Numbered from the stretch's first letter, positions 12,167 to 50,037 are shown. The stretch: DNA of 50,037 nucleotides from Alphaproteobacteria bacterium (GCA_035625535.1 DASPPM010000004.1:1-50037); one strand, 5' to 3'. The notes: a model not told the origin generated them from the sequence alone. Program-made: numbers and translations.

Positions 12167-12867
12167 GACACGCCCGTTCCCAGATAGGCCGTGACGACCT
12201 CCGGGATTTGGCGGACCTCGTCCGGCGTTCCCTCCGCCAGAGTACGCCCAAGATGCAGCACCGTGATGCGATCGCAGATTGAGAACACGACCTCCATGTC
12301 GTGCTCGACCAGCAGCACCGTCACGCCCCAGCGCCCGACAAGGTCTTTCAGCAGTCTTGCAAGCGCGAGCGATTCTCCGAGCGAGAGCCCCGCCGCGGGC
12401 TCATCGAGGAGTAGAACCCGCGGACGGCCGATCAAGGCGAGCGCCAGGTCAAGCCGCCTTTGATCACCATAGGAGATATCGCCTGCGCGTCGGCCCGCAT
12501 GCTGCGACAGCGACAGCGCCTCCGCGACCTCTTCGGCATTGTTATTTTCGCTCGTGCGAGCCGCCAGTTGCAGCTGCTCCAGCACCGTGAGATCGGCGAA
12601 GATATTCGTACGCTGGAACGAGCGCGCGAGCCCAAAGCTGCGGCGCTCCTGCACGCTACGACGGTCGATGGGAGCGCCGAAGAGGCGCACCTCGCCGCTC
12701 CATTCCCGCGCGCGCCCGGAGAGGACGTCGATGAGGGTTGACTTGCCGGCGCCATTAGGGCCGATGAGCGCGCGGATTTCACCCTCGGGAACCGCAATGT
12801 CGACACCATCCAGCGCGACGAAACCGCCAAATCGCCGCCTCAATCCTATGCCTTCCAGCGCAAACAT
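12163..12867 (-). CDS. ABC transporter ATP-binding protein, LivG type
   Basis: GPNGAGKST, ISYGDQRRLDLALAL, LLLDEPAAGL. Start chosen at MFALEG (12867), 4 nt after the permease stop. The ORF is open to 12924. Confidence 0.88.
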   Translation of the reverse strand: MFALEGIGLRRRFGGFVALDGVDIAVPEGEIRALIGPNGAGKSTLIDVLSGRAREWSGEVRLFGAPIDRRSVQERRSFGLARSFQRTNIFADLTVLEQLQLAARTSENNNAEEVAEALSLSQHAGRRAGDISYGDQRRLDLALALIGRPRVLLLDEPAAGLSLGESLALARLLKDLVGRWGVTVLLVEHDMEVVFSICDRITVLHLGRTLAEGTPDEVRQIPEVVTAYLGTGVS

Positions 12868-12871
12868 GGTC

Positions 12872-13888
12872 TCACCCTCGCGCCAAGCGCGAGCGACGCT
12901 CGGCCATCGCGAGAAGCGCGCCACCCAGGCCGGTTGGCAAGAGGACCGTGACCGCGATCAGCGACAAGCCGATCATCGCGGGCCAATGCTCCGTGTAGTT
13001 GCTCGCGACGTTCTTGAAGAAGAAGAAGACCAGCGCGCCCAGAGCCGGGCCCCACAGGACGCGGGCCCCGCCGATGATCGCCATGATCAGCGCGGAGCCG
13101 GACAGGTTCCAATGCAGGAGGTCCGGCGAGACGAAACCATTGTAAAGAGCGATGAGCACGCCGGCGAGCGCCGCCAGGAAGGCCGAGACGGCGTAAATGC
13201 CCGCGCGCGGCACGATCGTGCCGTAGCCGACGAAACGCGCTCGCTCCTCGTTCTCGCGAATTGCAACGGTGAGTCGGCCGAAGTGCCCGTTCGCAATCCA
13301 GTGCAGCAGCGCAGTCGCGGCGACGAGCGCGATCCAGCAGACCACGAACATGCTCGACGGCCGCTGAAAAGTGCTGGTCGCGACGCCGAAGAGCTGGCGC
13401 GGCAGACGGATCGCGAGCCCATCGTCTCCGTTCGCCAGCTCTCGCCACTTGTAGAGAACTTCGTAGAATGCCTGCCCCACCGCGAGCGTGAGCATAGAGA
13501 AAGCGATCCCCGGACTGCGCACGATCACCAGCCCAAGCAGGAACGCGAAGGCGGTCGGTCCGGCCAACGCCAGCAGGATCGCCGCCTCAACCGGCATTGC
13601 CTGGAATTTCACCGCGATCGCGATGGTATACGCCGCGAGGCCATAGAACGCGGCTTGGCCGAAACTGACCACGCCGTTCTGCCGAATAAGGAAACCGACG
13701 CTTAGCGCAAGAATTGCGCTGATGACGGCCTGCGTCATGAGGGTGAAGAAGAGCGCCGAGCTCACCAGCCATGGCAGTACAAGCCCCACGAGCAGCGCCA
13801 CGCCGCCCACGGCGGGCATTGTCCCGAAGACACTCGGCCGCTCCGCAGTGCGGCGAAAATTCGCAGGCTGGCGGAGAGGCTTGGTCAT
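12872..13888 (-). CDS. ABC transporter permease, LivM type
   Basis: Polytopic hydrophobic protein of the LivM pattern. The ATG at 13888 overlaps the livH-like stop (ATGA). Confidence 0.82.
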   Translation of the reverse strand: MTKPLRQPANFRRTAERPSVFGTMPAVGGVALLVGLVLPWLVSSALFFTLMTQAVISAILALSVGFLIRQNGVVSFGQAAFYGLAAYTIAIAVKFQAMPVEAAILLALAGPTAFAFLLGLVIVRSPGIAFSMLTLAVGQAFYEVLYKWRELANGDDGLAIRLPRQLFGVATSTFQRPSSMFVVCWIALVAATALLHWIANGHFGRLTVAIRENEERARFVGYGTIVPRAGIYAVSAFLAALAGVLIALYNGFVSPDLLHWNLSGSALIMAIIGGARVLWGPALGALVFFFFKNVASNYTEHWPAMIGLSLIAVTVLLPTGLGGALLAMAERRSRLARG

Positions 13889-38791: not shown

Positions 38792-41700
38792 CTATTCGGC
38801 CGCCTGCCGCGCCGCGATCAGGCGCATGATGACGGCGCGGAGGGCCGCGGGCTTGAGCGGCTTCTTGAGGAGTGGCAGCGCGAGCAACTGGGCACGGGCG
38901 GCGACCGCTTCCGAGCGGTCCGCGCTGATCAGGATGGCGGGAACCTCGGCACGGTAGTGGCGGCGCAATGTCATGATGCAGGCGATGCCGTCGTCCCCGT
39001 CGTCGAGATGGTAATCGACGATGAGGAGGTCCGGTGGGGCCGCACCCGGGGCGTCAAGCGCCAGCGCAGCACTGAGCCCGCTGGCGGAGCGCAGGCGATA
39101 CGACCACCCCTCGAGCAGCGCGGTGAGGCCGTCGAGCGCGCGCGGCTCGTTGTCGATGCAAAGCACGGCGAGGCGCTCGCCCGTCGGCATCGGCCGCGCC
39201 GGCTCGAAAACAGGCGAGAGTGCCAGCACGGGTGCGATGCCGCGCGGCACCGCGAGCGTGAAGACGGTGCCGCGGCCGGCCTCGGAGCGAAAGCTCACCG
39301 GATGGTCGAGGATGCGGCTGATGCGCTCCACGATCGAGAGGCCGAGGCCGAGGCCGTGCTCGGTGCCCGGGCCGCTGGCGAAGCGTTGGAACTCCTTGAA
39401 GACGAGGGGGTGCTTGTCCTCCGGGATGCCGCAGCCGGTATCCCACACCTGGATCAGGAGCGAGGCGCCGATGCGGCGGGCACCCATCAGCACCTTGCCG
39501 CGCGCGGTATAGCGAACGGCATTGGAAAGCAGATTCTGCAGCACGCGATGAAGAAGCTGCCGATCGCTCCTCACGGCGAGCGAGGTGGGCACGATGCGCA
39601 GGTCGAGCCTCTTTTTCTCCGCGAGGGGGGCGAACTCGAGCCTGAGTGCCGCGAACAGCTCGCCGAGAGCAAAGTCGCCCCACTCGGGCGTCATGCCACC
39701 CGCATCGAGCTTCGAGATGTCGAGCAGCATGCCGAGCAGCTCCTCGACCGAGCCGAGCGAGGCGTCGATCTTGCGCACGAGCTCGCCGTCCGGCAGGCTC
39801 AGGCTGCTTGCGCCGCGCGCGTGCCGCTCGACGAGACTCGAAACATAGAGCCGCGCGGCATTCAGAGGCTGGAGTAGGTCGTGGCTCGCCGCCGCGACGA
39901 AGCGGGTCTTGCCCAAGTCCGCCTCCTCGGCCGTGATCCTGGCGCGGTCGAGCTCGGCGTTGAGCGTCGTGAGCTCGGCCGTCCGCTCGCGCACGCGCTG
40001 CTCGAGATACTCGTTCGCCGCGGCGAGCTGGGCGGCGACGCGGACATGCTCGGTGATGTCGGAATAGGTGGTGACATAGCCGCCGCCCGGCATGGGGCTG
40101 CGGCGGACCTCGAGCACCGTGCCGTTGGGCCGGCGATATTCCAGCACCGGTTCGCCGTCGCCGAGAAAGAGCTCGAGCTGCCGCGCCACCAGATCGTCCG
40201 GGTTGCCGGGGCCGTACTCGCCGCGCTCGGCATTGAAGCGCATGATCTCCGGCAACGTTACGCCGACGGAGCCGAGGGCCGCTGGCAATTCGAGCAGGTC
40301 GCGGAATCGCCGGTTCCAGCACACGAGACGGAGCTCGCGGTCGAACACGCTGATGCCCTGGCGCACGTTCTCGAGCGTCGATTGCAAAAGGTCGCGATTA
40401 TACTGGATAGCCGCCGTCGCATCGTCGAGGAGCCCTATGGCGTCGTCGGCGCCCAGGTTGTGGCGCTCGAGCGTGAGGGCCATGACGAGGCGGGCCGAGG
40501 AGGCGCCGATGGCGCTCGCGAGCAGCCGCTCGGTGTGGCGGACGAGAGCGAAGTCCGCCTCGGCGTCATGCGCAAGAGGCGCCCCGCGCAGGGCCGCGAA
40601 ATCCTCGAAGGAGCGCTGGGCCCGCTCCGGCCCGAGATAGCTCGCGGCCACCATCGCCAGCTCCGAAATGCGGACCGAACCGTGCCATTGCCGCAGGCCC
40701 GGCTGAGCGGCGCCGGCATCGGCGTCCACGAAGGCGCTCGCCTGCAGCCGCTCGATCACCTTGGGCACGCTCAAGAGCGAGCACAGCGCATAGGCGGTCA
40801 CGTTGGCGAGCAGGCTCCAGAACACGCCGTGCGTCAGCGGATCGAAGCGCAGGCCGAAAAGCTGCTGCGGGCGCAGGAGCGAAATGCCGAACGGCCCGGA
40901 GGCGAGGAGCTCAGCCGAGAAGGCGCCCGACTGCATGAGCGTGGGCAGGAAAAGGGTATATGCCCAAACCGAAAAGCCCGCGAGGATGCCCGCGATCGCC
41001 CCCTTCTGCGTGGCGCCGCGCCAGATGAGGCCGCCGAGCAAGGCCGGGCCGAATTGCACCACCGCGGCGAAGCTCAAGAGGCCGATCGAGGCAAGCGCGT
41101 AGCTGTCGCCCAAGAGGCGATAGGTGCAATAGGCAAGCAGCATGAAGGCCACGATCGCGACGCGGCGGACCTGCAGAATGACCTTTCCCATGTCCTCGCG
41201 GTCCGAGAGGCCGAGCCGCCGGCGGTGCAGCACGATGGGCATGACCAGGTCGTTGCTCACCATGTTGCTGACCGCCACCGATTCGACGATGACCATGGCG
41301 GTGGCCGCGGAGAGGCCGCCGATGAAGGCGAAGAGTGCCAACGCCGACTGCCCGCCGGCCATCGGGAGGGCCAGCACGAACATATCGCCGTGGTCCGCCG
41401 AGGCACCGATGACGAGAAGGCCGGCCGCGGCGATCGGCACCACGAAGATGTTGATGGCCACGAGATAGAGCGGGAAGAGCCAGGCGGCCTTGCGCAGATC
41501 CCGCTCGTGCACGTTCTCCACCACCGCAACGTGGAACTGCCGCGGCAGGCAAAGGATCGCCGCCAGGGCCAATCCCGTCATGGTCACCCAGGTCGCGCCG
41601 TCGACCCCGCCGCCGAAGAGGCTGCTGAGTGCTGGTGCCGCGCGCACGCGGGCCAGGATATCGCTCCAGCCGCCGAACATGCCCCAGGTGACGAAGGCGC

Positions 41701-42343
41701 CCACCGAGATGAAGGCCACGAGCTTGACGAGCGATTCGAAGGCGATGGCCAGCATCATGCCTTCGTTGTGCTCGGTCGCGTTGATGTTCCGGGTGCCGAA
41801 GAGGATGGCGAACAGCGCGAGCACGAGGGACACGATGAGCGCCGTGTCGCTCCAGATCGCGTGGCCGCCCACATCCGCCGCCAGCGCGCTCAGCGGATGG
41901 CGCATCAGCACCGTGAAGCTGGTCGACACCGCCTTGAGCTGGAGCGCTATGTAGGGCAGCACGCCGATCACCGCGATCACGGTGACGATCGCCGCAAGCA
42001 ACTGGCTCTTGCCGTAGCGCGCGGCGATCAGATCGGCGATGGAGGTGATGTTGTGGCTTTTCGAGAGGCGCACGATCCGGCGCAAGAGCGGCAGGCCGAT
42101 GACGAACATCAGGATCGGGCCGAGATAGATCGGCAGGAAGTCGTAGCCGGTGCGCGACGCGAGACCGACGCTGCCGTAAAAGGTCCAGGAGGTGCAGTAG
42201 ACCGCGAGCGAGAGCGCATAGACGAGGGGCTTGCCCTGGCTCCGCCCGCGCGCCCGCGCCCTCCGGTCGCCGTAATAGGCAATGGCGAACAAGAGACCGA
42301 CATAGCCGAGCGACAAGGCCAGAACGGCCCAACCCGGAACCAT
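38792..42343 (-). CDS. crbS: hybrid sensor histidine kinase with N-terminal sodium:solute symporter (SLC5) domain, PAS, HisKA, HATPase_c and C-terminal REC; CrbS-type
   Basis: The N-terminal ~550 aa is a polytopic SSS-like domain (...YYGDRRA...VYCTSWTFYGSVG...SIADLIAARYGKS...). H-box FVAAASHDLLQPLNAARLY; N/G boxes LLSNAVRYT, DTGCGIP, GLGLGLSIV; REC LLIVDYHLDDG...LKKPLKP. Start MVPGW at 42343 after GGGGAGG. Confidence 0.85.
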   Translation of the reverse strand: MVPGWAVLALSLGYVGLLFAIAYYGDRRARARGRSQGKPLVYALSLAVYCTSWTFYGSVGLASRTGYDFLPIYLGPILMFVIGLPLLRRIVRLSKSHNITSIADLIAARYGKSQLLAAIVTVIAVIGVLPYIALQLKAVSTSFTVLMRHPLSALAADVGGHAIWSDTALIVSLVLALFAILFGTRNINATEHNEGMMLAIAFESLVKLVAFISVGAFVTWGMFGGWSDILARVRAAPALSSLFGGGVDGATWVTMTGLALAAILCLPRQFHVAVVENVHERDLRKAAWLFPLYLVAINIFVVPIAAAGLLVIGASADHGDMFVLALPMAGGQSALALFAFIGGLSAATAMVIVESVAVSNMVSNDLVMPIVLHRRRLGLSDREDMGKVILQVRRVAIVAFMLLAYCTYRLLGDSYALASIGLLSFAAVVQFGPALLGGLIWRGATQKGAIAGILAGFSVWAYTLFLPTLMQSGAFSAELLASGPFGISLLRPQQLFGLRFDPLTHGVFWSLLANVTAYALCSLLSVPKVIERLQASAFVDADAGAAQPGLRQWHGSVRISELAMVAASYLGPERAQRSFEDFAALRGAPLAHDAEADFALVRHTERLLASAIGASSARLVMALTLERHNLGADDAIGLLDDATAAIQYNRDLLQSTLENVRQGISVFDRELRLVCWNRRFRDLLELPAALGSVGVTLPEIMRFNAERGEYGPGNPDDLVARQLELFLGDGEPVLEYRRPNGTVLEVRRSPMPGGGYVTTYSDITEHVRVAAQLAAANEYLEQRVRERTAELTTLNAELDRARITAEEADLGKTRFVAAASHDLLQPLNAARLYVSSLVERHARGASSLSLPDGELVRKIDASLGSVEELLGMLLDISKLDAGGMTPEWGDFALGELFAALRLEFAPLAEKKRLDLRIVPTSLAVRSDRQLLHRVLQNLLSNAVRYTARGKVLMGARRIGASLLIQVWDTGCGIPEDKHPLVFKEFQRFASGPGTEHGLGLGLSIVERISRILDHPVSFRSEAGRGTVFTLAVPRGIAPVLALSPVFEPARPMPTGERLAVLCIDNEPRALDGLTALLEGWSYRLRSASGLSAALALDAPGAAPPDLLIVDYHLDDGDDGIACIMTLRRHYRAEVPAILISADRSEAVAARAQLLALPLLKKPLKPAALRAVIMRLIAARQAAE

Positions 42344-42545
42344 CGCCTCCCCACGGCAAGAAGTTTCTTCGTTGCCCCATGATACGCCGTTCGAAGCCGC
42401 CGGGGCTAGGCTCAAGAGGCTCAAGGGCGCTCGAGGCGGGTTCACTGAGGGCGGGCTCGGTCGAGCGAGGCGGGCGTCGCGGTTGCCCGGGGGCGGCGGC
42501 TAGGCTAAAACCCGCGCGCGTTTCCACACATCTCCGGAGCGAGGC

Positions 42546-44228
42546 ATGGCGGCCTACCAATACATCTACGTCATGAACGGCCTCAGCAAGGCCTTCCCGG
42601 GCGGCCGGCAGGTGCTCAAGGATATTCGCCTTTCGTTCTTTCCCGGCGCCAAGATCGGCGTGCTGGGCCCGAACGGCTCCGGCAAATCGACGTTGCTCCG
42701 CATCATGGCCGGCCTTGATGCCGACTTCGCGGGCGAGGCCTGGGCCGCCGAGGGGGTGAAGGTCGGCCTCTTGCCTCAGGAGCCGGTGCTCGACGCCGGG
42801 AAGGACGTGATGGGCAACGTGCTCGACGGGGTCGCCGAGAAGAGGGCGCTCCTCGAGCGCTTCGAGAGGGTGAGCGCGCGCTTCGCCGAGCCCCTCGAGG
42901 AGGCGGAGATGAATGCGCTCATCGCCGAGCAGGCGGAGCTCCAGGAGACGATCGACGCGGTCAACGGCTGGGAGCTGGAGCGCCAGGTCGAGATCGCCAT
43001 GGACGCGCTGCGCTGCCCGCCGGGGGGTGCTGCGGTCGCGACTCTCTCGGGCGGGGAGCGCCGCCGGGTGGCCCTCTGCCGGCTGCTGCTTCAGCATCCC
43101 GATCTCCTGCTCCTCGACGAGCCGACCAACCATCTCGATGCGGAGTCGGTCGCCTGGCTCGAGCGCTTTCTCTCCGAGTACGACGGCACCGTGGTCGCGG
43201 TCACCCATGACCGCTACTTCCTCGACAATACCGCCGGCTGGATCCTCGAGCTCGACCGCGGACGCGGCATCCCGTTCAAGGGCAATTACTCCTCCTGGCT
43301 CGAGCAGAAGCACAAGCGCCTCGAGCTCGAGGAGAAACAGGAAGCCTCCCGGCAGCGCGAGCTTGCCCGCGAGCTCGAGTGGATCCGCGAGTCGCCGCGC
43401 GCGCGTCAAGCCAAGAGCAAGGCGCGCATCAGCGCCTATGAGACGCTCCTCGCTGAGAGCCGCGATCGCTCGCCGGACCAGGCCCAGATCGTCATCCCGG
43501 CCGGTCCGCGGCTGGGCGACCTCGTGATCCAGGCCGAGCATCTCCGCAAGGCCTACGGCGAGCGGCTCCTGATCGAGGATCTGAGCTTTCGCCTGCCGGC
43601 CGGTGCGATCGTCGGCATCATCGGGCCCAACGGGGCCGGCAAGACGACGCTCTTCCGTATGATCACCGGCGAGGAAAAACCCGACGGTGGCGAGCTCCGC
43701 ATCGGCGAAACGGTCAAGCTCGGCTACGTCGGCCAATCGCGCGACTCGCTCCGCGCTGAGAAGACGGTGTGGGAGGAGATTTCGGACGGCCTCGATCAGC
43801 TCGAGCTCGGCAAGCACCGCATGCCGAGCCGGGCCTACGTCGCCGCCTTCAACTTCAAGGGCGCCGATCAGCAGAAGAAGGTGGGGCAGCTCTCGGGCGG
43901 CGAGCGCAATCGCGTGCATCTCGCCAAGATGCTCAAATCGGGCGCCAACCTGCTGCTTCTCGACGAGCCGAGCAACGACCTCGACGTCGACACCCTGAGG
44001 GCGCTCGAGGACGCGCTCGTCGCATTTGCCGGCTGCGTCATGGTGATCAGCCACGACCGCTGGTTCCTCGATCGCATCGCGACGCACATGATGGCGTTCG
44101 AGGGCGAGAGCCAAGTCGCCTGGTTCGAGGGGAACTACTCGGACTACGAGGCCGACCGCCGCCGCCGCCTCGGCGAGGCGGCCGAGCAGCCGCACCGCAT
44201 CAAGTATAAGCCGCTGGTGCGGGCCTAG
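42546..44228 (+). CDS. ettA: energy-dependent translational throttle protein, ABC-F family
   Basis: [56 protein letters not shown]... Two ABC cassettes ([11 protein letters not shown]; GPNGAGKTT; [11 protein letters not shown]). The length and N-terminus are those of EttA/YjjK. Confidence 0.9.
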
Positions 44229-44254
44229 CGCGGAATCCATTTCGGTGGAAGCAG

Positions 44255-44345
44255 CCCCCTCACCCTACCCTCTCCCCCTTTGAGGGGGAGAGGGTTGCGC
44301 AGCCTTAGCGAGCGTAGCGAGCTTAGGCAAAGCTGGGTGAGGGGG
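44255..44345. repeat. nested palindromic REP-like element downstream of ettA
   Basis: Outer arms CCCCCTCACCC (44255-65) and GGGTGAGGGGG (44335-45). Inner 12-bp hairpin ACCCTCTCCCCC-tttga-GGGGGAGAGGGT (44267-95). Tandem TAGCGAGC x2 lies in between. Read directly. Confidence 0.65.
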
Positions 44346-44453
44346 CGATTCCGCTTCGTCGGATATTGCTCTAGATCCGCATGCCGGATGACGGATGTCA
44401 GCCGAAAATATCGGCATGCCCGCCGCGTGCAGCTTTCTCGTCGCCGGCACCGG

Positions 44454-44482
44454 TTGACTGCACAAGGGCGGTAAATTACGAT
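44454..44482 (+). promoter_or_regulatory. candidate sigma70-type promoter (TTGACT-N17-TACGAT) for the ino1 operon
   Basis: Hexamers at 44454-59 and 44477-82. This predicts a ~85-nt leader to the GTG at 44576. Pattern match only. Confidence 0.3.
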
Positions 44483-44575
44483 TTGATGACAAAGCCCGCG
44501 GCTCGCCGTTTCATTGCCGTGCTAACGCCTGCGCGCCTGAGCGGCGACCGAGGGGCGCATGGGGGATCTGATCCG

Positions 44576-45727
44576 GTGCACAACAAGATCAAGGTGGCGA
44601 TCGCTGGCGTCGGGAACTGCGCGTCGGCGCTGGTGCAGGGCGTCGAGTTCTACCGCAACCGCCAGGGTGCTGCGATGCACGGCATCATGCACCCCTCGAT
44701 TGGCGGCTACGGCTGCTCCGACATCGAGTTCGTCGCGGCGTTCGACGTCGACGCGCGCAAGGTCGGCCGCCCGCTCGAGGAGGCGATCTTCGCCAAGCCC
44801 AACTGCACCCTCATCTTTCAAAGCGCGCTCCCGGTTTCGAACGTGATCGTTCAAGCCGGCCCCGTGCTCGACGGGGTCGCCGCGCACATGGCCGATTATC
44901 CCGACGACGTGGCGTTCCGCTCGGCCGACCTCGAGCCGACCGATATCGCTGAGGCGCTGCGGGCCTCGAAAGCGGAGGTCTTGCTCTGTTATCTGCCGGT
45001 CGGCTCCGAGCAGGCCGCCAAGCATTACGCCCAGGCCTGCCTCGATGCCCGCGTCGCCATGGTCAACTGCATTCCCGTCTTCCTCGCCTCCGACCGCGAA
45101 TGGGCGCGGAGATTCCGCGACGCCGGTCTGCCCATCATCGGCGACGACATAAAGAGCCAAGTGGGCGCCACCATCGTACATCGCGCGCTCGCGCGGCTTT
45201 TCGCCGACCGCGGGGTCGGCGTCGAGCGCACCTACCAGCTCAACACGGGCGGCAACACCGATTTCCTCAACATGCTCGAGCGCAGCCGCCTGAAGTCGAA
45301 GAGGATCTCCAAGACCGAAGCCGTCCAATCGCAATTGGACGAGCAGCTCGAGGCCAAGAACATCCACATCGGCCCCTCCGACTATGTGCCGTGGCAGCGT
45401 GACAACAAGGTCTGCTTCATCCGCATGGAGGGCTACGGATTCGGCGAGGCGCCCATCGAATTGGAGCTGCGGCTCTCGGTCCAGGACTCCTCGAACAGCG
45501 CCGGCGTGGTGATCGATGCGATCCGCTGCGCGAAGCTCGCGCTCGAGCGCGGCGAGGCGGGCCCGCTCGAGGCGCCCTCGGCCTATTATATGAAGAGCCC
45601 GCCGCGCCAGCTCCGCGACAGCGTCGCGCGAGAGGCCTGCGATGCCTTCATCGACGGCCGTCCCTTCGATTTGCCCGAGGAGCCGCAGCACGGCGCGAGC
45701 GCCGCGGCCAGGGCCGATCGCGGCTAG
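44576..45727 (+). CDS. ino1: myo-inositol-1-phosphate synthase (inositol-3-phosphate synthase), bacterial/archaeal type
   Basis: KVAIAGVGNCASALVQGVEFY is the NAD-binding signature, as in actinobacterial Ino1. Also contains ...GDDIKSQVGATIVHR...QLNTGGNTDFLNMLE...SKRISKT... I prefer the GTG at 44576 (GGGGGA upstream); the in-frame ATG at 44486 is an alternative. Confidence 0.85.
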   Translation: MHNKIKVAIAGVGNCASALVQGVEFYRNRQGAAMHGIMHPSIGGYGCSDIEFVAAFDVDARKVGRPLEEAIFAKPNCTLIFQSALPVSNVIVQAGPVLDGVAAHMADYPDDVAFRSADLEPTDIAEALRASKAEVLLCYLPVGSEQAAKHYAQACLDARVAMVNCIPVFLASDREWARRFRDAGLPIIGDDIKSQVGATIVHRALARLFADRGVGVERTYQLNTGGNTDFLNMLERSRLKSKRISKTEAVQSQLDEQLEAKNIHIGPSDYVPWQRDNKVCFIRMEGYGFGEAPIELELRLSVQDSSNSAGVVIDAIRCAKLALERGEAGPLEAPSAYYMKSPPRQLRDSVAREACDAFIDGRPFDLPEEPQHGASAAARADRG

Positions 45728-45796
45728 TATCGACTTTCGCGCGTTCGTCAGTCGCCTTCCGGCGAGCCGCGAACCGCGCCTGCGGGTGCTTCGTCG

Positions 45797-46576
45797 ATGA
45801 CACAGCCGATCGAGACCCTGCTTTTCGATTTTGGCGGCACGCTCGACGCCGACGGGCTCTCGTGGCAGGCGCGTTTTCATGCCCATTATCGGGCGGAGGG
45901 ACTGGAGATGGCGGCCGAGAGCTTCGCGCCTGCTTTCTACGCCGCCGATGATGCGCTCATCGGAGTGCTCGCGCCCGATTGCGACCTCGGCGAGACGATC
46001 GAGCGCCTGGCCGGCAATCTCGAGGCCGAGCTCGCCCGCCGTGGCGGCGGCAGCGGCAGAGCCGGCGCCGATTGCGCGCGCGGCCGGCGCGTAGCGTCGC
46101 ACTTCCTTGCCGAGGCCCGGGCGGCCTTGGCGCGCAACCGGGCGCTGCTCGAAACGCTCAAGGCGCGCTTCCGCCTGGGCATCGTCTCGAATTTTTACGG
46201 CAATCTCGAAGCGGTGTGTCAAGGCGCCGGCTTGGCGGGTTTTTTCGATGTCATTGTCGACAGCCATCGGGTAGGCGCGCGCAAGCCCGACCCGGCGATT
46301 TTTCGCGCAGCCCTCGCCCCGCTCGGCGCCAAGCCCGAGACGACGCTCATGATCGGCGATTCCTTGCGCCGCGACGGCGAGGGCGCACGGCGCATGGGCA
46401 TGGGCTTCGTCTGGATTGCACCCAGCACTGCGCCCACGTCGACGCTGCGGGCCGGTGAGGCCGAGCTTTGCCAGTCGAGGGTGGCGCAGCTCTCAGATCT
46501 AGCGGAGGTCTTGCATGACCGGCACGTCCGGCCGGCCGATCCAGCGCGGCGGCATCATCGCCGCCGGCGAGGGTAG
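45797..46576 (+). CDS. HAD-superfamily hydrolase (subfamily IA-like) with non-canonical motif I
   Basis: Motif I LLFDFGGTLD (D-x-G instead of D-x-D), motif II IVSN, motif III RKPDPAIF, motif IV GDSLRRDGEGA. Confidence 0.75.
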   Translation: MTQPIETLLFDFGGTLDADGLSWQARFHAHYRAEGLEMAAESFAPAFYAADDALIGVLAPDCDLGETIERLAGNLEAELARRGGGSGRAGADCARGRRVASHFLAEARAALARNRALLETLKARFRLGIVSNFYGNLEAVCQGAGLAGFFDVIVDSHRVGARKPDPAIFRAALAPLGAKPETTLMIGDSLRRDGEGARRMGMGFVWIAPSTAPTSTLRAGEAELCQSRVAQLSDLAEVLHDRHVRPADPARRHHRRRRG

Positions 46577-47246
46577 CCGGCTCAGCGCCGACGGCTATCG
46601 CGGCAGCAAAGCGATGGTGCCGGTGGCCGGCCGTCCGCTGATCGGCCATGCGCTCGCGCGATTTCGCGCCATCGGCATCCGCCGGCTGACGGTCATCGTC
46701 AACGACGCGAGCGAGGATTGCCAGGAATGGCTCAGGCGCCACGGCGGCGATTTCGAGCTCGACCTCATCGTGCGCACGACACCCTCCTCCTACGCGAGCT
46801 TTCGTCTCGTCGCCGAGCGTCTCTTGGGGGACCCGGCACTGATCACGACCGTCGACGGTATCATGCCTACGGACGATTTCAGCGCCTTCGCGAAGGCCGC
46901 CGCCGGCTTCCCTGAGGACGCCTTCGTGCTCGGCTTGACCGCCCACGTCGACGATGAAAAACCCCTGTGGGCGACGCTCGATACGGCCGACGGCCGCATC
47001 CGGCGACTCGGCGGCGAGAGCGGCAGCCATGCGACGGCCGGCCTCTACGTGCTGCCCGCGGCACGGCCGGGCGAGCCCGCCCGCGGCTTCGCGCGCCTGC
47101 GCGACTATCTCGCGTGGCTGGTGGCCGAAGGCCATCCGGTCTACGGTGTCGTCTTGCCGAGGGTCTTCGACATCGACCGCGCCAGCGACATCAGGGCGGC
47201 GGAGCGGGCGGCGGCCGGCGGGGAGACCAGGGGCGAGGCTCCATGA
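46515..47246 (+). CDS. nucleotidyltransferase (NTP_transferase family; sugar/alcohol-phosphate nucleotidylyltransferase-like)
   Basis: N-terminal signature GGIIAAGEGSRL...KAMVPVAGRPLIGHAL. GGAGG lies 7 nt upstream of the ATG at 46515. It overlaps the HAD gene by 62 nt. Confidence 0.75.
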   Translation: MTGTSGRPIQRGGIIAAGEGSRLSADGYRGSKAMVPVAGRPLIGHALARFRAIGIRRLTVIVNDASEDCQEWLRRHGGDFELDLIVRTTPSSYASFRLVAERLLGDPALITTVDGIMPTDDFSAFAKAAAGFPEDAFVLGLTAHVDDEKPLWATLDTADGRIRRLGGESGSHATAGLYVLPAARPGEPARGFARLRDYLAWLVAEGHPVYGVVLPRVFDIDRASDIRAAERAAAGGETRGEAP

Positions 47247-48094
47247 GTGCTGAAGGAACCTGCTGGGGCATATACCGCGAGTCCGCGCACTCGCCCGGGC
47301 GGGTCGAGGACGACGCGGCGATCATCGAGAGCGTGGCTGCCGAACTGGTGGAGCAGGGCTTCTCTGTCGAGCTCCTCGCGAGCGATGCCGCCGATGCTGC
47401 CCTCGAGACGCCTGGGGCTAACATCTTCACCATGTGCGAGCGCGGCGAGATCCTCGATCGTCTCAAGGAGGCGGTGCGGACCGGTGGCGTCGTGGTCAAC
47501 TCCCCGGATGCGATCCGCAACACCTATCGTCACCGCATGGTCGAGCTCTTCGCGCGGGCCGGCATACCGTCGCCGGCGAGCCACGTCCTCGCCACCAATG
47601 CAGCTGCCTCTCCGCCGCTCGCCTGCGCCTGGATCAAGCGCTATGACTTCCATGCGACGCAATCGGACGACGTCATGTATGCGGCGTCCGAGGAGGGTTG
47701 GCGCGTGGCGTTGGACCGTTTCGCCGGGCGCGGCATTCCCTTCGTCGTCGCCCAGCAGCATGTCGCCGGCGATCTCGTCAAATTCTACGGCGTGGCACGC
47801 GGTGCGGAGAGCACTGCGGGTTCCGCGTGGTTCGAATGGTTCTATCACCGTGACAAGGGCATGATCGGTCACGCATTCGAGGTCGAGAGGCTGCACGACG
47901 TGGCCTTTCGCGCCGCCGCGGCATTGGGGTTGGAGATTTTCGGCGGCGACGCCATCATCCAACGTGACGGGGCGCCGATGATCATCGACCTCAATGCCTG
48001 GCCGAGCTTCGCGCGCTATCGCCACGAGGCCGCGCGCGCGATCGCAACCCATCTCTCCGAGCGTTTTCAGCGGCGCTTGCGCGCCGTCAGCTGA
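47243..48094 (+). CDS. ATP-grasp fold protein; by eye closest to inositol-polyphosphate kinase (ITPK) / RimK-type enzymes
   Basis: The ATG overlaps the upstream stop (ATGA). Contains ...VVNSPDAIRNTYRHRMVELFARAGIPSP...WIKRYDFHAT...FVVAQQHVAGDLVKFYGV...LGLEIFGGDAIIQRDGAPMIIDLNAWPSF... Motif order is typical of ATP-grasp enzymes. Confidence 0.6.
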   Translation: MSAEGTCWGIYRESAHSPGRVEDDAAIIESVAAELVEQGFSVELLASDAADAALETPGANIFTMCERGEILDRLKEAVRTGGVVVNSPDAIRNTYRHRMVELFARAGIPSPASHVLATNAAASPPLACAWIKRYDFHATQSDDVMYAASEEGWRVALDRFAGRGIPFVVAQQHVAGDLVKFYGVARGAESTAGSAWFEWFYHRDKGMIGHAFEVERLHDVAFRAAAALGLEIFGGDAIIQRDGAPMIIDLNAWPSFARYRHEAARAIATHLSERFQRRLRAVS

Positions 48095-48108
48095 CGGGGA
48101 ATCGAGCC

Positions 48109-49482
48109 ATGAACGACGTCCGCCCACCGAACGAGGCACCCGGCCATGCCGTCGGCGAGCGCCGCGCCGTTCCCGGCCCGCGCTCCAAGGCCGTCTTCGA
48201 GCGCGAAGCCCGAACCATGGCGCCCGGCCTGCAATCGATAGCGCTCTTCTCGCAAATCGCGGTCGACCGCGCCAAGGGCTCGACGATCACCGACGTCGAC
48301 GGCAACGAATATCTCGACTTCGTCGCCGGGGTCGCCGTCGGCAGCCTCGGGCACTGCCATCCCCATTACCTCGAGCGCCTCAAGGAGCAGCTCGAGCGCG
48401 CCACCTTCGGCAGCTTCACGACCGAGACGCGCGCGCGCTTCCTCGAGCTCGTGGGCTCGGTCCTGCCCGAAGGGATCACGCACCTCCAGCTCTTCTCGGG
48501 CGGGGCCGAGGCGGTCGAGGCCGCCTTCCGCCTCGCCAAGTCGGTCACCAGGAAGTTCGAGTTCGTCGGATTCTGGGGCGGCTTTCACGGCAAGACCGCG
48601 GGCGTCATCGGCCTGCTCGGCGGCGGCTATCGCAACCACCAGGGACCGTTTCCGCCGGGCATGCATCTCTCGCCCTACGCCTATTGCTATCGCTGCCCGT
48701 GGCATCTCGAGTATCCGTCCTGCGGGCTCGCCTGTGCCGAGCATCTGCGCAACGTGATCAAGAACGATACCCAAAGCGAGGTCGCGGCCATCATCATGGA
48801 GCCGATGCAGGGTACCGCCGGCAACGTCATCCCGCCCGACGAGTTCGTTCTCGCCGCGCGCGGGATCGCCCAAGAGATCGGCGCGCTCTTCATCGCCGAC
48901 GAGACGCTGACCGGCTTCGGCCGCACGGGGACGATGTGGGCCTCGGAGCAATCCGGGCTGAGACCTGACGTGATGACGATGGGCAAAGGCATGGGCGGGG
49001 GCTTTCCGCTGAGCGGGGTCGCCTCCTCGCTCGAGCTCATGTCGGCCAAGCCCTTCGGCGAGCCGAGCGGCAGCTCGTCGAGCTACGGCGGCAATCCGCT
49101 CGCCGCGGCCGCGGGGCTCGCCGCGATCGAGGTCATCCTCAAGGAGAAGCTCGTCGAGAATTCGGCCCGCGTCGGCGCCAGGATGCTCGCGGCCCTCAAG
49201 GAGCTGCAAGACAAGTACCGCTTCATCGGCGACGTGCGGGGGCGCGGCCTGATGATCGGCGTCGAGATGGTCGCGGATCGCACGACGAAGGCGCCCTTGG
49301 ACAAGACCATCACCCGCGCTCTTTTCCACGAGGCGCTCGAGCGCGGCCTCGTCACCATGTCCTATTCGCACGTCATCCGCATCAACCCGCCCCTCGTCAT
49401 CACCGAGGACGAAGCCTTGCGCGGCGTCGACATCCTCGACCAGTCGTTCGCCGCCATTCAGCGCCGCTTCGGGCTCGATTGA
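48109..49482 (+). CDS. class-III pyridoxal-phosphate-dependent aminotransferase
   Basis: ...DVDGNEYLDFVAGVAVGSLGHCHP...FSGGAEAVEAAFRLAK...IMEPMQGTAGNVIPP...FIADETLTGFGRTGTMWA...TMGKGMGGGFPL (PLP lysine)... Confidence 0.88.
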   Translation: MNDVRPPNEAPGHAVGERRAVPGPRSKAVFEREARTMAPGLQSIALFSQIAVDRAKGSTITDVDGNEYLDFVAGVAVGSLGHCHPHYLERLKEQLERATFGSFTTETRARFLELVGSVLPEGITHLQLFSGGAEAVEAAFRLAKSVTRKFEFVGFWGGFHGKTAGVIGLLGGGYRNHQGPFPPGMHLSPYAYCYRCPWHLEYPSCGLACAEHLRNVIKNDTQSEVAAIIMEPMQGTAGNVIPPDEFVLAARGIAQEIGALFIADETLTGFGRTGTMWASEQSGLRPDVMTMGKGMGGGFPLSGVASSLELMSAKPFGEPSGSSSSYGGNPLAAAAGLAAIEVILKEKLVENSARVGARMLAALKELQDKYRFIGDVRGRGLMIGVEMVADRTTKAPLDKTITRALFHEALERGLVTMSYSHVIRINPPLVITEDEALRGVDILDQSFAAIQRRFGLD

Positions 49483-50037
49483 TGCAAGCACTCCCCCTGC
49501 GCGGGGCCTTCATCGGCTTCGGCGGCGTCGCCGCCAATGGGCATCTGCCCGGCTGGCGCGCGCGTAAAGACACAGCGATCGTCGCCGCGGTCGACGCCGC
49601 AGCTCAGCGCCGGCAAGCGTTCCTCGCGGCCTCTCCCGGTGCCCGTGTCTACGGGTCCGTCGAGGCACTCCTGGCCGGCGAGACCCTCGACTTCGTGGAC
49701 ATCTGTACGCCACCCGGCAGTCACGCGGGGCTGATCGCGCAGGCACTCGATGCCCGGCTCCATGTGCTCTGCGAAAAGCCCCTGACGACGCGGCTCGAGG
49801 ACGCCCGGAGGGTGGCCGCCGCGGCCGCGCGTGCCGGGCGCGTCGTGCACACCGTGCACAACTGGCTCGAGGCCCCGGTCTGCCTCCGCGTCTCGGCCCT
49901 CGTTTCCGAAGGGGCGATAGGAGCGGTGCGCGCGCTCCGCTGGCGCACCCTGCGGAGCGCCCCCGCGGCCGTCAGTGATGCCGCCGGCAATTGGCGCGTC
50001 GATCCGGCGCTGGCGGGCGGCGGCATCCTTTTCGACC
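49482..50037 (+). CDS. Gfo/Idh/MocA-family NAD(P)-dependent oxidoreductase, N-terminal 185 codons (continues past the right edge)
   Basis: Absent from the track because it is edge-truncated. My own translation from the ATG at 49482 (overlapping the upstream TGA by 1 nt): MQALPLRGAFIGFGGVAANGHLPGW...LDFVDICTPPGSHAGLIAQALDARLHVLCEKPL... It carries the Rossmann GxGxxA and EKP motifs of this family. Confidence 0.8.
   Translation, partial: MQALPLRGAFIGFGGVAANGHLPGWRARKDTAIVAAVDAAAQRRQAFLAASPGARVYGSVEALLAGETLDFVDICTPPGSHAGLIAQALDARLHVLCEKPLTTRLEDARRVAAAAARAGRVVHTVHNWLEAPVCLRVSALVSEGAIGAVRALRWRTLRSAPAAVSDAAGNWRVDPALAGGGILFD

Follow-up and report, generated by a model that had tools for sequence, protein, structure and literature searches.

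A widely conserved, uncharacterised inositol-linked gene module of Alphaproteobacteria and other phyla that most likely builds a membrane-lipid head group

Inositol-3-phosphate synthesis is the established chemistry of the myo-inositol-3-phosphate synthase (MIPS) family, and MIPS recurs in several of the described systems closest to the locus reported here. With a phosphatase it belongs to the di-myo-inositol-phosphate (DIP) gene set, which also includes IPCT and DIPPS, and the aminocyclitols of streptomycin and rhizopine follow a logic of MIPS, phosphatase, dehydrogenase and aminotransferase, the last being of the DegT/StsC type. Class III aminotransferases, of which HpnO is one, usually take terminal aldehydes or amines, not ring ketones. 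The route through PIP synthase and PIP phosphatase, known from mycobacteria and Bacteroides thetaiotaomicron, needs neither a nucleotidyltransferase nor an ATP-grasp enzyme. An alternative inositol lipid cluster of Bacteroides vulgatus and Prevotella, putative and unconfirmed, holds MIPS, an NTP transferase, a CDP-alcohol phosphotransferase (CDP-OH) and a HAD protein (with an LPG-synthase-like neighbour); the route proposed for it is Kennedy-like via CDP-inositol, and CDP-OH~HAD fusions have been reported (Heaver et al. 2022, PMC9246714). For hopanoids, hpnI-hpnK-hpnJ, found in hpn loci by hpnL, place an aminocyclitol on the lipid to give bacteriohopanetetrol cyclitol ether, with export by HpnN (PMC12583986; 10.1101/2025.07.29.667474).

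The window analysed here is a 50,037-nt stretch of alphaproteobacterial DNA, at the far end of which ORF calling and domain searches found six genes on the plus strand. In order, these encode a MIPS of the actinobacterial/bacterial type (44576..45727), a HAD-IA phosphatase-family protein (45797..46576; PF00702, PF13419, PF13242), a nucleotidyltransferase of sugar-phosphate or polyol-phosphate type (46515..47246; NTP_transf_3/NTP_transferase, PF12804, PF00483), a 283-aa ATP-grasp enzyme (47243..48094), a class III (omega-type) PLP aminotransferase (48109..49482; Aminotran_3, PF00202, 331.7 bits) and the N-terminal 185 aa of a Gfo/Idh/MocA NAD(P) oxidoreductase, hereafter Gfo (49482..50037; GFO_IDH_MocA, PF01408, PF22725), which the window end truncates. 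Between successive genes lie a 69-nt gap, a 62-nt overlap, an ATGA overlap, a 14-nt gap and a TGATG overlap. In ORFs, families and junctions the locus is as an earlier sequence-only reading described it, except at its beginning: homologues of this MIPS are called at 382-383 aa, a length that the GTG at 44576 (383 aa) fits better than the ATG at 44381 from which that reading began both gene and operon, and the GTG is probably the start. MIPS scores 125 bits against PF01658 and 465 bits against TIGR03450, over profile positions 1-355 of 355 and under the equivalog cutoff of 638. The promoter-like TTGACT-N17-TACGAT lies at 44454..44482 (+), 94 nt ahead of the probable start of MIPS, as a sigma-70-like match at 9/12 consensus positions (1 site found, 0.1 expected from shuffled sequence). 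What the same reading labelled a REP element is a nested-palindrome element of about 150 nt (44229..44377) between an ABC-F gene and the operon, for which REP is a provisional label. Its inverted repeats comprise a 13-nt perfect hairpin at 44267-44295 with outer arms of 12 nt and 8 nt, and it occurs once in the window; because it is missing from a 96%-identical MAG contig (L004) whose flanks abut at that point, it is likely an insertion.

This contig, 96.4% identical over window positions 42555-50035, also shows what follows. It carries a full-length orthologue (12237-13259) of Gfo, whose ATG in the window is at 49482, and past the window end it holds the end of Gfo, then a convergent CDP-OH gene, an HpnL-like flippase-domain gene and HpnN (1110 bits on NF052374, cutoff 1100). 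A CDP-alcohol phosphatidyltransferase had been predicted beyond 50037 and is there, directly after Gfo; the operon had been expected to run on as well, but only the end of Gfo remains of it, the next gene being convergent. CDP-OH has its best NCBIfam matches in the DIPPS domain of IPCT/DIPPS, AIP synthase and PIP synthase, and its best PDB matches in AF2299 (6.9e-24) and IPCT/DIPPS (1e-15), which by sequence comparison place it in the AF2299/DIPPS/PIP-synthase branch of CDP-alcohol phosphotransferases. With the PIP synthase route the present module shares the logic of inositol-3-phosphate from MIPS, an inositol-phosphate-accepting CDP-OH and a phosphatase, but its CDP-OH scores 40-52 bits against the PIPS equivalog model, where the cutoff is 170.

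The order HAD-NTP-ATPgrasp-AT3-Gfo-CDP-OH (NTP, the nucleotidyltransferase; AT3, the aminotransferase) is kept in synteny across about 80 loci, which represent at least five phyla, with hosts in the Alphaproteobacteria, Acidobacteriota/Thermoanaerobaculia, Methylomirabilota, Chloroflexota and Desulfobacterota. On this sequence evidence the gene order goes far beyond what chance would give, the genes are co-conserved as a unit, and the six-gene set is an uncharacterised module of wide conservation. The relatives found all come from MAGs or metagenome contigs, and their hosts are mesophilic taxa of soils and sediments. Among loci of at least 12 kb (n = 69), HAD is a core member in 66, CDP-OH is present in 58 and an HpnL-like PF03706 gene in 48. 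In other phyla the cluster holds a divergent type of MIPS (25% identity, with NAD_binding_5), and the presence of two such divergent types argues that inositol phosphate supply is the selected function. The literature searched yielded no characterised match for the gene set, in line with the sequence-only reading, which knew of no named pathway; the combination is nonetheless not wholly unfamiliar, as it has four gene types in common with the Bacteroides/Prevotella cluster (MIPS, NTP transferase, HAD and CDP-OH, compared by gene type). Unlike the present module, that cluster is without ATP-grasp, class III aminotransferase, Gfo and hopanoid genes, and its fusions are CDP-OH~HAD, those here ATP-grasp~HAD and ATP-grasp~CDP-OH.

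The CDP-OH matches could also be read in favour of a soluble DIP-like compatible solute, possibly aminated, for which an IPCT-like enzyme would make CDP-inositol, a DIPPS-like enzyme would condense it with inositol phosphate and HAD would remove a phosphate. CDP-OH is closest to Archaeoglobus AF2299 and the DIPPS domain; the nucleotidyltransferase is IPCT-like in family, with weak NCBIfam matches, NF041135 among them, to archaeal GlmU, RmlA, IPCT/DIPPS and IspD models; its best PDB relatives are glucose-1-phosphate thymidylyltransferases; and MIPS and a phosphatase, present here likewise, complete the known DIP gene set. We consider a DIP-like product improbable, however. All the scores fall far short of the equivalog cutoffs (81-90 bits against 580), the hosts are mesophilic bacteria, and DIP synthesis has no role for ATP-grasp, aminotransferase or Gfo. 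Moreover, the frequent flippase-domain partner and the hopanoid or Mla-type lipid transporters that are frequent neighbours would be needless for a cytosolic solute.

The ATP-grasp protein has no match in Pfam, and its family (1359 representatives at E<=1e-3; invariant K132, D236 and D249-x-N251) is without a model there. Its profile finds PsnB (1.4e-6), RimK (3e-5) and ITPK1 (5e-4) in the PDB, and Foldseek places its AF2 model (pLDDT 88.6) with Ddl, RimK, DcsG, PsnB, ArgX and ITPK1 (E values around 1e-11 to 1e-12), ranking Ddl, RimK and PsnB slightly over ITPK1 and so not separating kinase from ligase. The C-terminal motif fGGDaii...iiDlNaWPsf aligns with FGIDIII...VIDINAFPGY of ITPK1 and has D-x-N, as against E-x-N in RimK; ITPK1 and VIH are inositol-phosphate kinases and ATP-grasp enzymes (PMC7618535). 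The protein may thus be either a kinase, which the ITPK1-like motif makes plausible, or a ligase, and an inosamine N-acyl ligase is unlikely because the gene is kept in loci that have no aminotransferase or Gfo. In other organisms the nucleotidyltransferase is repeatedly fused N-terminally to ATP-grasp (6/6 tested), HAD~NTP~ATP-grasp, ATP-grasp~CDP-OH and ATP-grasp~HAD proteins also occur, and HAD itself has only subfamily-level NCBIfam matches. The kinase, cytidylyltransferase and phosphotransferase roles of the Kennedy pathway would map to ATP-grasp (if a kinase), the nucleotidyltransferase and CDP-OH, the first two being joined by the NTP~ATP-grasp fusions. The differences are that the putative kinase here has an ATP-grasp fold (ITPK1/PPIP5K-like), not the choline-kinase fold, and that the alcohol would be a cyclitol, an aminocyclitol or a polyol lipid. 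Where aminotransferase and Gfo are missing, a kinase and a phosphatase look redundant if MIPS supplies inositol phosphate directly, unless it is the lipid alcohol, not the cyclitol, that is phosphorylated and cytidylylated.

The aminotransferase gene is always paired with Gfo, and the pair is missing from two loci (L043, L052) and from short modules, all of which keep ATP-grasp; amination would therefore be a tailoring step. The nearest solved relatives of the aminotransferase are GABA-type aminotransferases and related racemases, and the usual substrates of class III count against an inosamine step. Gfo matches levoglucosan dehydrogenase and IolG models weakly and scores too low for an IolG equivalog (55 bits, cutoff 355). 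An aminocyclitol pathway, as the sequence-only reading proposed, is reasonable in its logic of MIPS, phosphatase, dehydrogenase and aminotransferase; what does not stand is a self-contained operon for a soluble metabolite, because CDP-OH and an HpnL-like protein, and often hopanoid genes, lie alongside and make the module most likely part of a lipid head-group system. A diffusible product of the aminocyclitol or opine kind (streptidine-, hygromycin- or rhizopine-like), which the sequence-only reading also considered, would use the same four enzyme roles as the hygromycin A pathway (PMC10949010), and these are encoded together here. We regard such a product as extremely improbable: no typical glycosyltransferase, amidinotransferase, methyltransferase, resistance gene or exporter was seen, the partners conserved with the module are a CDP-alcohol phosphotransferase of the membrane and a protein resembling a flippase, the aminotransferase is not of the DegT/StsC type, and so wide and vertical-looking a spread in soil phyla is atypical for a specialised-metabolite cluster.

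The nature of the lipid is suggested by the neighbours, since by sequence the module sits inside hopanoid loci in three phyla. One alphaproteobacterial clade (L086/L087) has hpnA-hpnB-hpnC-hpnD-hpnE-shc-MIPS-HAD-NTP-ATPgrasp-AT3-Gfo, all on the same strand, and each of the six hpn/shc genes exceeds its NCBIfam cutoff. Methylomirabilales (L083/L085) have OEP-MlaC-MMPL-MlaC-PagL-SHC-PF03706-HAD-NTP-ATPgrasp-AT3-Gfo-CDP-OH-MIPS, again on one strand, which we read as hpnN-hpnM-shc-hpnL-HAD-...-CDP-OH-MIPS. Other Alphaproteobacteria (L003-type) have HpnL (299.8 bits, cutoff 195.65), a MlaA-like gene, HpnN (1229.5 bits, cutoff 1100) and an HpnM-like gene. In Acidobacteriota a short HpnL-HAD-ATPgrasp-CDP-OH module adjoins hpnH/hpnA/hpnG; in L089, a short-module locus resembling the acidobacteriotal L059 and L064, its neighbours are HpnH (362 bits, cutoff 225), HpnA and a gene like HpnG. 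Short modules have no adjacent nucleotidyltransferase, which counts against our main reading. Overall, a hopanoid biosynthesis gene lies within 10 kb in 21/70 long loci, and that or an HpnN-like MMPL gene in 35/70. The 50-kb window holds no hpn biosynthesis gene, and in its lineage only HpnN and the HpnL-like gene adjoin the module.

It is on this embedding that two readings of the lipid anchor rest. The first, which we put forward tentatively as a serious candidate, is a bacteriohopanepolyol with a phospho-inositol or phospho-inosamine head group; the second, a glycerolipid made and trafficked together with hopanoids, is somewhat doubtful. The searchable literature yielded neither a connection of inositol with hopanoid metabolism nor a phosphorylated hopanoid, and none of 63 bacteriohopanepolyol derivatives surveyed in Alphaproteobacteria has a phosphate or inositol (PMC12583986). 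A phosphatidylinositol, or an aminated or decorated one ("phosphatidyl-inosamine"), on diacylglycerol, with the hopanoid genes mere envelope-lipid neighbours sharing an HpnN/Mla-like route, would agree with the gene set of the Bacteroides/Prevotella cluster and with the relation of CDP-OH to AIP and PIP synthases. To our knowledge that Bacteroidetes group does not produce hopanoids, so the cassette needs no hopanoid anchor; about half of the long loci (n = 70) lack a hopanoid gene within 10 kb, and PF03706 pairs with many head-group enzymes, as in a second NTP-CDP-OH-PF03706 cassette in two loci (L083, L088). Bacteroidetes with a related cluster make inositol sphingolipids and glycerolipids, and the hosts of the Bacteroides/Prevotella cluster make PI-type lipids (PMC9246714). 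We nevertheless find this reading unlikely, since a PIP-synthase route could draw on CDP-DAG from CdsA and would not need an ATP-grasp and a nucleotidyltransferase of its own, since insertions directly between shc and the end of the hpnA-F array, or in Methylomirabilales between shc/hpnL and MIPS, are tighter than loose clustering, and since the same association recurs in three phyla with different gene orders. The hopanoid context would also suit a side-chain modification without inositol, Gfo and an HpnO-like aminotransferase giving 35-amino-bacteriohopanepolyols whose amine ATP-grasp N-acylates with an amino acid, on the model of ornithine- and tryptophan-linked aminotriols. HpnO is an aminotransferase-family enzyme that turns ribosylhopane into aminotriol (PMC12583986), the aminotransferase here resembles omega-aminotransferases, and Foldseek puts ATP-grasp among carboxylate-amine ligases. 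It is a very improbable account all the same, for it leaves unexplained a MIPS recruited twice from divergent families, the IPCT-like NTP transferase and the inositol-phosphate-type CDP-OH, and ATP-grasp persists in loci that have no aminotransferase.

Most likely, then, the module builds an inositol-derived phosphate head group, probably aminated, for a membrane lipid, and on balance we favour the fuller account in which this is a hopanoid-linked system. The six window genes would be its soluble-enzyme half, and CDP-OH, the HpnL-type protein and the hopanoid RND transporter HpnN the other. In the order we infer, MIPS would supply inositol-3-phosphate; ATP-grasp would act one step before CDP activation, most simply as a kinase in the Kennedy-like manner; the nucleotidyltransferase, as a cytidylyltransferase, would give a CDP-activated intermediate; and CDP-OH would form a phosphodiester between cyclitol and lipid alcohol. 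HAD may take the phosphate off inositol phosphate ahead of oxidation and amination, or may remove the terminal one from a lipid-P-inositol-P, as in PI, PG and DIP synthesis, and the optional Gfo and aminotransferase would turn one ring CHOH into CHNH2, giving an inosamine head group. As with hpnI-hpnK-hpnJ, a hopanoid would thereby gain a polar aminocyclitol head group, but the cyclitol would come from glucose-6-phosphate via MIPS and be phosphodiester-linked, whereas theirs derives from GlcNAc (glycosyl transfer, deacetylation, radical-SAM ring contraction) and has an ether linkage. The module's constant partner, a PF03706 membrane domain of flippase type, recalls MprF, the lysyl-phosphatidylglycerol synthase/flippase, although the tRNA-dependent synthase domain of MprF is missing here and HpnL is a putative flippase. 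HpnL would flip the finished lipid, so that, as with MprF, a cationic or zwitterionic head group would face the outer leaflet, and HpnN, HpnM and MlaA-like proteins would carry the lipid outward.

All six genes of region 44381-50037 lie on the + strand, and their junctions agree exactly with those read from the sequence alone: a 69-nt gap, a 62-nt overlap, ATGA, a 14-nt gap and TGATG. The promoter-like TTGACT-17-TACGAT of that reading was also located, at 44454-44482. The first gene encodes a myo-inositol-3-phosphate synthase (MIPS) whose probable start is GTG 44576, because the resulting length equals the 382-383 aa of its homologues. Pfam and NCBIfam place after it a HAD-IA hydrolase (45797-46576, +) and an NTP_transf_3/NTP_transferase protein (46515-47246, +), followed on the same strand by a 283-aa ATP-grasp product without a Pfam match, a class-III aminotransferase (Aminotran_3, 331.7 bits) and the PF01408 N-terminal part of a Gfo/Idh/MocA oxidoreductase (Gfo), which begins at ATG 49482 in the TGATG junction and has its N-terminal 185 residues inside the window. 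MIPS scored 125 bits on PF01658 (cutoff 27) in Pfam and, in NCBIfam, covered 1-355 of 355 of TIGR03450 with 465 bits, short of the mycothiol-type equivalog cutoff of 638; by these profile scores it is a member of the family and not the mycothiol equivalog. The mycothiol reading invited by the name of TIGR03450 is rejected on that score and on the lack of Msh genes in the neighbourhood. The 62-nt overlap of the HAD and NTP-transferase genes is restricted to the window clade (the window and its relative L002) and is 4 nt in the more distant relatives L003 and L086, so the HAD C-terminus is extended in the window. In L002 (8765-11101), aminotransferase and Gfo are called as a single 778-aa product, which may be a genuine fusion or reflect a frameshift in the assembly; they are separate genes, joined by the TGATG overlap, in the window and in its 96%-identical relative L004.

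The sequence-only reading had also placed a REP element upstream. A nested palindrome of about 150 nt is indeed present between the ABC-F gene and the operon (44229-44377; a 13-nt perfect hairpin with 12-nt and 8-nt outer arms), but REP is only a candidate label for it. The element occurs once in the window and is precisely missing from the 96%-identical L004, and it is therefore probably inserted, as a recent MITE/REP-like insertion. Before it, translation reveals an apparent ABC-F ATPase (42546-44228) and an apparent large sensor kinase (38792-42445, -). On both strands of 38792-44240, very long ORFs also overlap the real genes, either antisense to them or in a different frame (40911-44240, -, 1109 aa, and 39881-42382, +, 833 aa, among others); another such ORF is 44522-46267 (-, 581 aa). 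Long shadow ORFs are typical of 66% GC DNA, and these are probably not genes.

What lies past the window can be read from L004, a MAG contig from uncultured Alphaproteobacteria that is 96.4% identical to, and collinear with, window positions 42555-50035. Beyond the end of Gfo it carries a convergent gene for a 408-aa CDP-alcohol phosphotransferase (CDP-OH), a divergent gene for an HpnL-like PF03706 protein and a convergent RND transporter gene. The HpnL assignment in this lineage derives from 66% tblastn identity to an L003 protein that passes the HpnL cutoff, while the transporter passes the HpnN equivalog cutoff (1110 bits against 1100) and is the only linked hopanoid gene to pass in the window's lineage. 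The CDP-alcohol phosphatidyltransferase predicted beyond the window is thus borne out, directly downstream in L004. The operon had also been expected to run on; since the gene after Gfo in L004 is convergent, there are no additional same-strand genes.

The ATP-grasp gene is the most distinctive of the module and for that reason served as the search anchor. Its close homologues number more than 1700, the family has 1359 representatives at 50% clustering, and a scan of one genome per species yielded at least 578 confirmed relatives. The best 80 of these at least 578, representing 79 distinct loci, all come from MAGs, and are spread over Alphaproteobacteria (Pseudolabrys, Stellaceae, Roseiarcus, Xanthobacteraceae), Acidobacteriota/Thermoanaerobaculia, Methylomirabilota/Rokubacteria, Chloroflexota and Desulfobacterota. 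Gene content was taken from precomputed gene calls and tblastn maps, which replaced a stop-to-stop ORF clustering confounded by GC-rich shadow ORFs (6 of 10 representatives were in the wrong frame, with no Pfam match). In the tblastn maps, HAD-NTP-ATPgrasp-AT3-Gfo-CDP-OH (NTP, the nucleotidyltransferase; AT3, the class-III aminotransferase) forms a nearly invariant block. MIPS precedes the block in Alphaproteobacteria and comes after it in Acidobacteriota and Methylomirabilales, where MIPS is of a different type, 25% identical and with NAD_binding_5. On the 702-kb alphaproteobacterial contig L003 (4834-8461), an IS66-family transposase and a PRiA4_ORF3 gene interrupt MIPS and leave it in two parts, and judging from this sequence the inositol-phosphate supply gene of that module is probably inactivated.

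Two variants of the block bear on what is central to it. Loci L043 and L052 read HpnL-HAD-NTP-ATPgrasp-CDP-OH-MIPS, lacking aminotransferase and Gfo, and many Acidobacteriota have a second, short module, HpnL-HAD-ATPgrasp-CDP-OH. The core therefore consists of HAD, ATP-grasp and CDP-OH, which in most cases are joined by an NTP transferase and an HpnL-like protein, and amination appears to be optional tailoring. Six Acidobacteriota loci (L045, L047, L066, L070, L071, L074) carry two paralogous modules each, the long one without HAD and the short one without NTP transferase, as if these two enzymes were common to both; a DUF2279 gene is often found nearby. Other cassettes also adjoin the module. 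In the Methylomirabilales locus L083 (16589-19426), and also in L036, L039 and L042, an NTP transferase and a CDP-alcohol phosphotransferase are fused into one protein, which reaches 242.7 bits on the IPCT/DIPPS model and is followed by a further HpnL-like protein, with 177 bits on TIGR03476, and by a small radical-SAM fragment. This cassette may be a second inositol head-group pathway. Upstream of the module in locus L088 (197-6271) are MlaD, MlaC, a TPP-dependent decarboxylase-like protein, an IspD-like NTP transferase, CDP-OH and PF03706, which may be another head-group cassette, our guess being a phosphonolipid one. NTP transferase, CDP-OH and PF03706 seem to be a recurring triad.

Physical linkage to the hopanoid (hpn) cluster is found in the relatives. 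In one alphaproteobacterial clade (L086/L087, L013, L018-L027), hpnA-hpnB-hpnC-hpnD-hpnE-shc is directly followed on the same strand by the six genes of the window, and the HpnA, B, C, D, E and SHC proteins encoded upstream of MIPS all score above curated NCBIfam cutoffs. Methylomirabilales have, on one strand, OEP-MlaC-MMPL-MlaC-PagL-SHC-PF03706-HAD-NTP-ATPgrasp-AT3-Gfo-CDP-OH-MIPS, SHC being identified here by Pfam domains; the gene between the second MlaC/HpnM-like gene and shc encodes a PagL-like outer-membrane beta-barrel (L083 4536-5186, L085 4660-5319). In Alphaproteobacteria of the L003 type, hpnL (299.8 bits, cutoff 195.65), a MlaA-like gene, hpnN (1229.5, cutoff 1100) and an hpnM-like gene come after the module; a recent preprint puts this set forward as the hopanoid trafficking system and states the function of HpnL to be unknown (10.1101/2025.07.29.667474). 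The metagenome contig L089 has the short module, with an ATP-grasp paralogue resembling those of Acidobacteriota, beside hpnH (362 bits, cutoff 225), hpnA (above cutoff) and an hpnG-like gene, and tblastn finds the same hpn neighbours in the Acidobacteriota loci L059 and L064. A Lipocalin_5 gene also sits beside the hpn genes of L089. Of the 70 loci that span at least 12 kb, 21 have a gene of hopanoid biosynthesis no more than 10 kb away, and 35 have either such a gene or an HpnN-like transporter; the window's own 50 kb contain no hpn biosynthesis gene. The literature we searched holds nothing linking MIPS or inositol with hopanoids or hopanoid loci, and the functions of hpnL, hpnA, hpnB and hpnM are still open (PMC12583986; 10.1101/2025.07.29.667474).

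The best-scoring model for CDP-OH is the DIPPS half of IPCT/DIPPS (NF041135; 81-90 bits, cutoff 580), followed by archaetidylinositol-phosphate and phosphatidylinositol-phosphate synthases, all below cutoffs (40-52 bits against 170 on the PIPS equivalog NF045883), and its nearest solved relatives are AF2299 (6.9e-24) and IPCT/DIPPS (1e-15). On these matches it therefore belongs to the inositol-phosphate, soluble-CDP-alcohol branch. The NTP transferase belongs to the sugar-phosphate or polyol-phosphate type; it matches RmlA, archaeal GlmU, IPCT and IspD weakly and fails the IPCT/DIPPS equivalog (27.7 bits on NF041135, cutoff 580). The aminotransferase is an omega-type class III enzyme and fell outside DegT/DnrJ/EryC1/StrS (StsC/MosB-type); the aminocyclitol aminotransferases of antibiotic pathways are DegT-type. 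A search for exact matches to the window's aminotransferase turned up a 3-kb contig and nothing else. Gfo has the PF01408 fold and resembles sugar/cyclitol secondary-alcohol dehydrogenases, scoring 55-57 bits on the IolG model TIGR04380 (cutoff 355) and 42-45 bits against inositol dehydrogenases in the PDB, below uncharacterised oxidoreductases of the Gfo family.

The ATP-grasp protein matches no Pfam family at E<=0.01 and fails the named equivalogs (RimK family, 22 bits against 143; MptN, 27 against 350). From a shallow alignment of 20 sequences (>=64% identity), AF2 produced a model with pLDDT 47, which was not used; with homologues of 42-53% identity added, pLDDT rose to 88.6. Foldseek matched this model to Ddl, RimK, PsnB and ITPK1 in the PDB with probability 1.0 and TM 0.6-0.75, and the invariant residues K132, D236 and D249-x-N251 correspond to the ATP-binding Lys and the Mg-binding acidic-x-Asn motif. 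The predicted structure places the protein in the ATP-grasp superfamily, a fold also returned by profile-vs-PDB searches. Neither method tells a kinase from a ligase: Ddl, RimK, DcsG, PsnB, ArgX and ITPK1 are matched about equally by Foldseek, with Ddl and RimK at 6e-13 and ITPK1 ranking 50th at 2.9e-11. Against ITPK1, the C-terminal 42 residues alone align (E about 2.5e-4 to 5e-4), and the D-x-N motif agrees. Elsewhere the ATP-grasp domain is fused to the NTP transferase (6 of 6 tested), to HAD plus NTP transferase, to HAD alone or to CDP-OH, which points to consecutive steps. A role as an inosamine N-acylase was set aside, since the gene is kept where aminotransferase and Gfo are absent. Our literature search found nothing on ATP-grasp enzymes with CDP-alcohol transferases in lipid synthesis.

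Three orderings of the chemistry were weighed, each starting from inositol-3-phosphate that MIPS would supply. In the ordering we tentatively place first, while holding it rather doubtful, the ATP-grasp enzyme would phosphorylate a lipid polyol such as bacteriohopanetetrol (BHT), the NTP transferase would convert it to a CDP-lipid, CDP-OH would couple this to inositol-3-phosphate, HAD would take off the terminal phosphate and Gfo with the aminotransferase would aminate the ring. Removal of a terminal phosphate by a phosphatase also occurs in PI, PG and DIP synthesis. Lipid activation best explains why HAD and ATP-grasp stay in the core where amination is absent, and why a dedicated kinase and cytidylyltransferase are needed, because CDP-DAG would otherwise suffice; it also fits the hopanoid context best. 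Activation of the head group uses the best precedents and is, in our estimate, unlikely: HAD would dephosphorylate inositol-phosphate, Gfo and the aminotransferase would give inosamine, ATP-grasp would re-phosphorylate it, the NTP transferase would make CDP-inosamine and CDP-OH would transfer phospho-inosamine to a lipid alcohol. We regard as equally unlikely that the ATP-grasp enzyme is a ligase, esterifying or amidating a carboxylate onto the head group; other orderings are more unlikely still. In all of them the PF03706 protein would flip the product and HpnN/HpnM/MlaA-like proteins would carry it outward.

The sequence-only reading, a candidate pathway to an inositol-derived metabolite, is supported in part; the product appears to be a lipid head group rather than a stand-alone soluble metabolite. 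From gene content, the module is probably a conserved, uncharacterised lipid head-group module, for phospho-inositol or phospho-inosamine, genetically tied to hopanoids, and by its families it would be a variant of the CDP-alcohol-phosphotransferase inositol-lipid pathway. A specific product, possible if still on the improbable side, is a composite hopanoid, a bacteriohopanepolyol (BHP) whose terminal hydroxyl bears phosphodiester-linked myo-inositol or inosamine. It would be made by a hopanoid-specific Kennedy or PIP-synthase-like pathway of ATP-grasp kinase, cytidylyltransferase, AF2299/DIPPS-like phosphotransferase, HAD phosphatase and optional Gfo/aminotransferase amination, with HpnL as flippase and HpnN/HpnM/HpnS as exporters. 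Inosamine is isomeric with glucosamine, and the module is present in a Roseiarcus MAG (L026). Species including Roseiarcus fermentans and Rhodoplanes elegans are reported to contain unidentified isomers of BHT-cyclitol ether and BHT-glucosamine that elute later (PMC12583986). A connection with the module is a weak, speculative lead on which we do not rely, since a product containing a phosphodiester would differ in mass.

Among bacteria, inositol lipids are regarded as rare. Of the described systems, the unconfirmed "alternative inositol lipid cluster" of Bacteroides vulgatus and Prevotella comes nearest, sharing MIPS, NTP transferase, CDP-OH and HAD with the module; all five domain types of its definition (PMC9246714) occur side by side in L004, L002, L003, L083 and numerous further loci. 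That cluster has an LPG-synthase-like neighbour. To the cluster's set the module adds the ATP-grasp enzyme, the aminotransferase/Gfo pair and the hopanoid linkage. Its enzymes also fail the equivalog tests of IPCT/DIPPS, PIP synthase, IolG and RimK, and the proposed route differs from the one by which HpnI/K/J build the hopanoid cyclitol ether already known, starting from GlcNAc (PMC12583986). The module is very widespread in uncultured soil and sediment bacteria, includes an ATP-grasp family (more than 1300 representatives at 50% identity) without a Pfam model, and in three phyla links the metabolism of inositol phosphate with hopanoid loci. Were the product instead phosphatidylinositol in an aminated form, this would be a zwitterionic phospholipid not yet described from bacteria, and the "alternative" inositol lipid pathway put forward for gut Bacteroidetes would gain its first functional handle. 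If a phospho-inositol or phospho-inosamine hopanoid is the true product, it would represent a class of lipid that is new and could serve as a biomarker, one that current BHP workflows would miss; it would also give HpnL a role and would have a CDP-alcohol phosphotransferase acting on a triterpenoid, placing a phospholipid-like hopanoid in the membranes of abundant uncultured soil Alphaproteobacteria, Acidobacteriota and Methylomirabilota.
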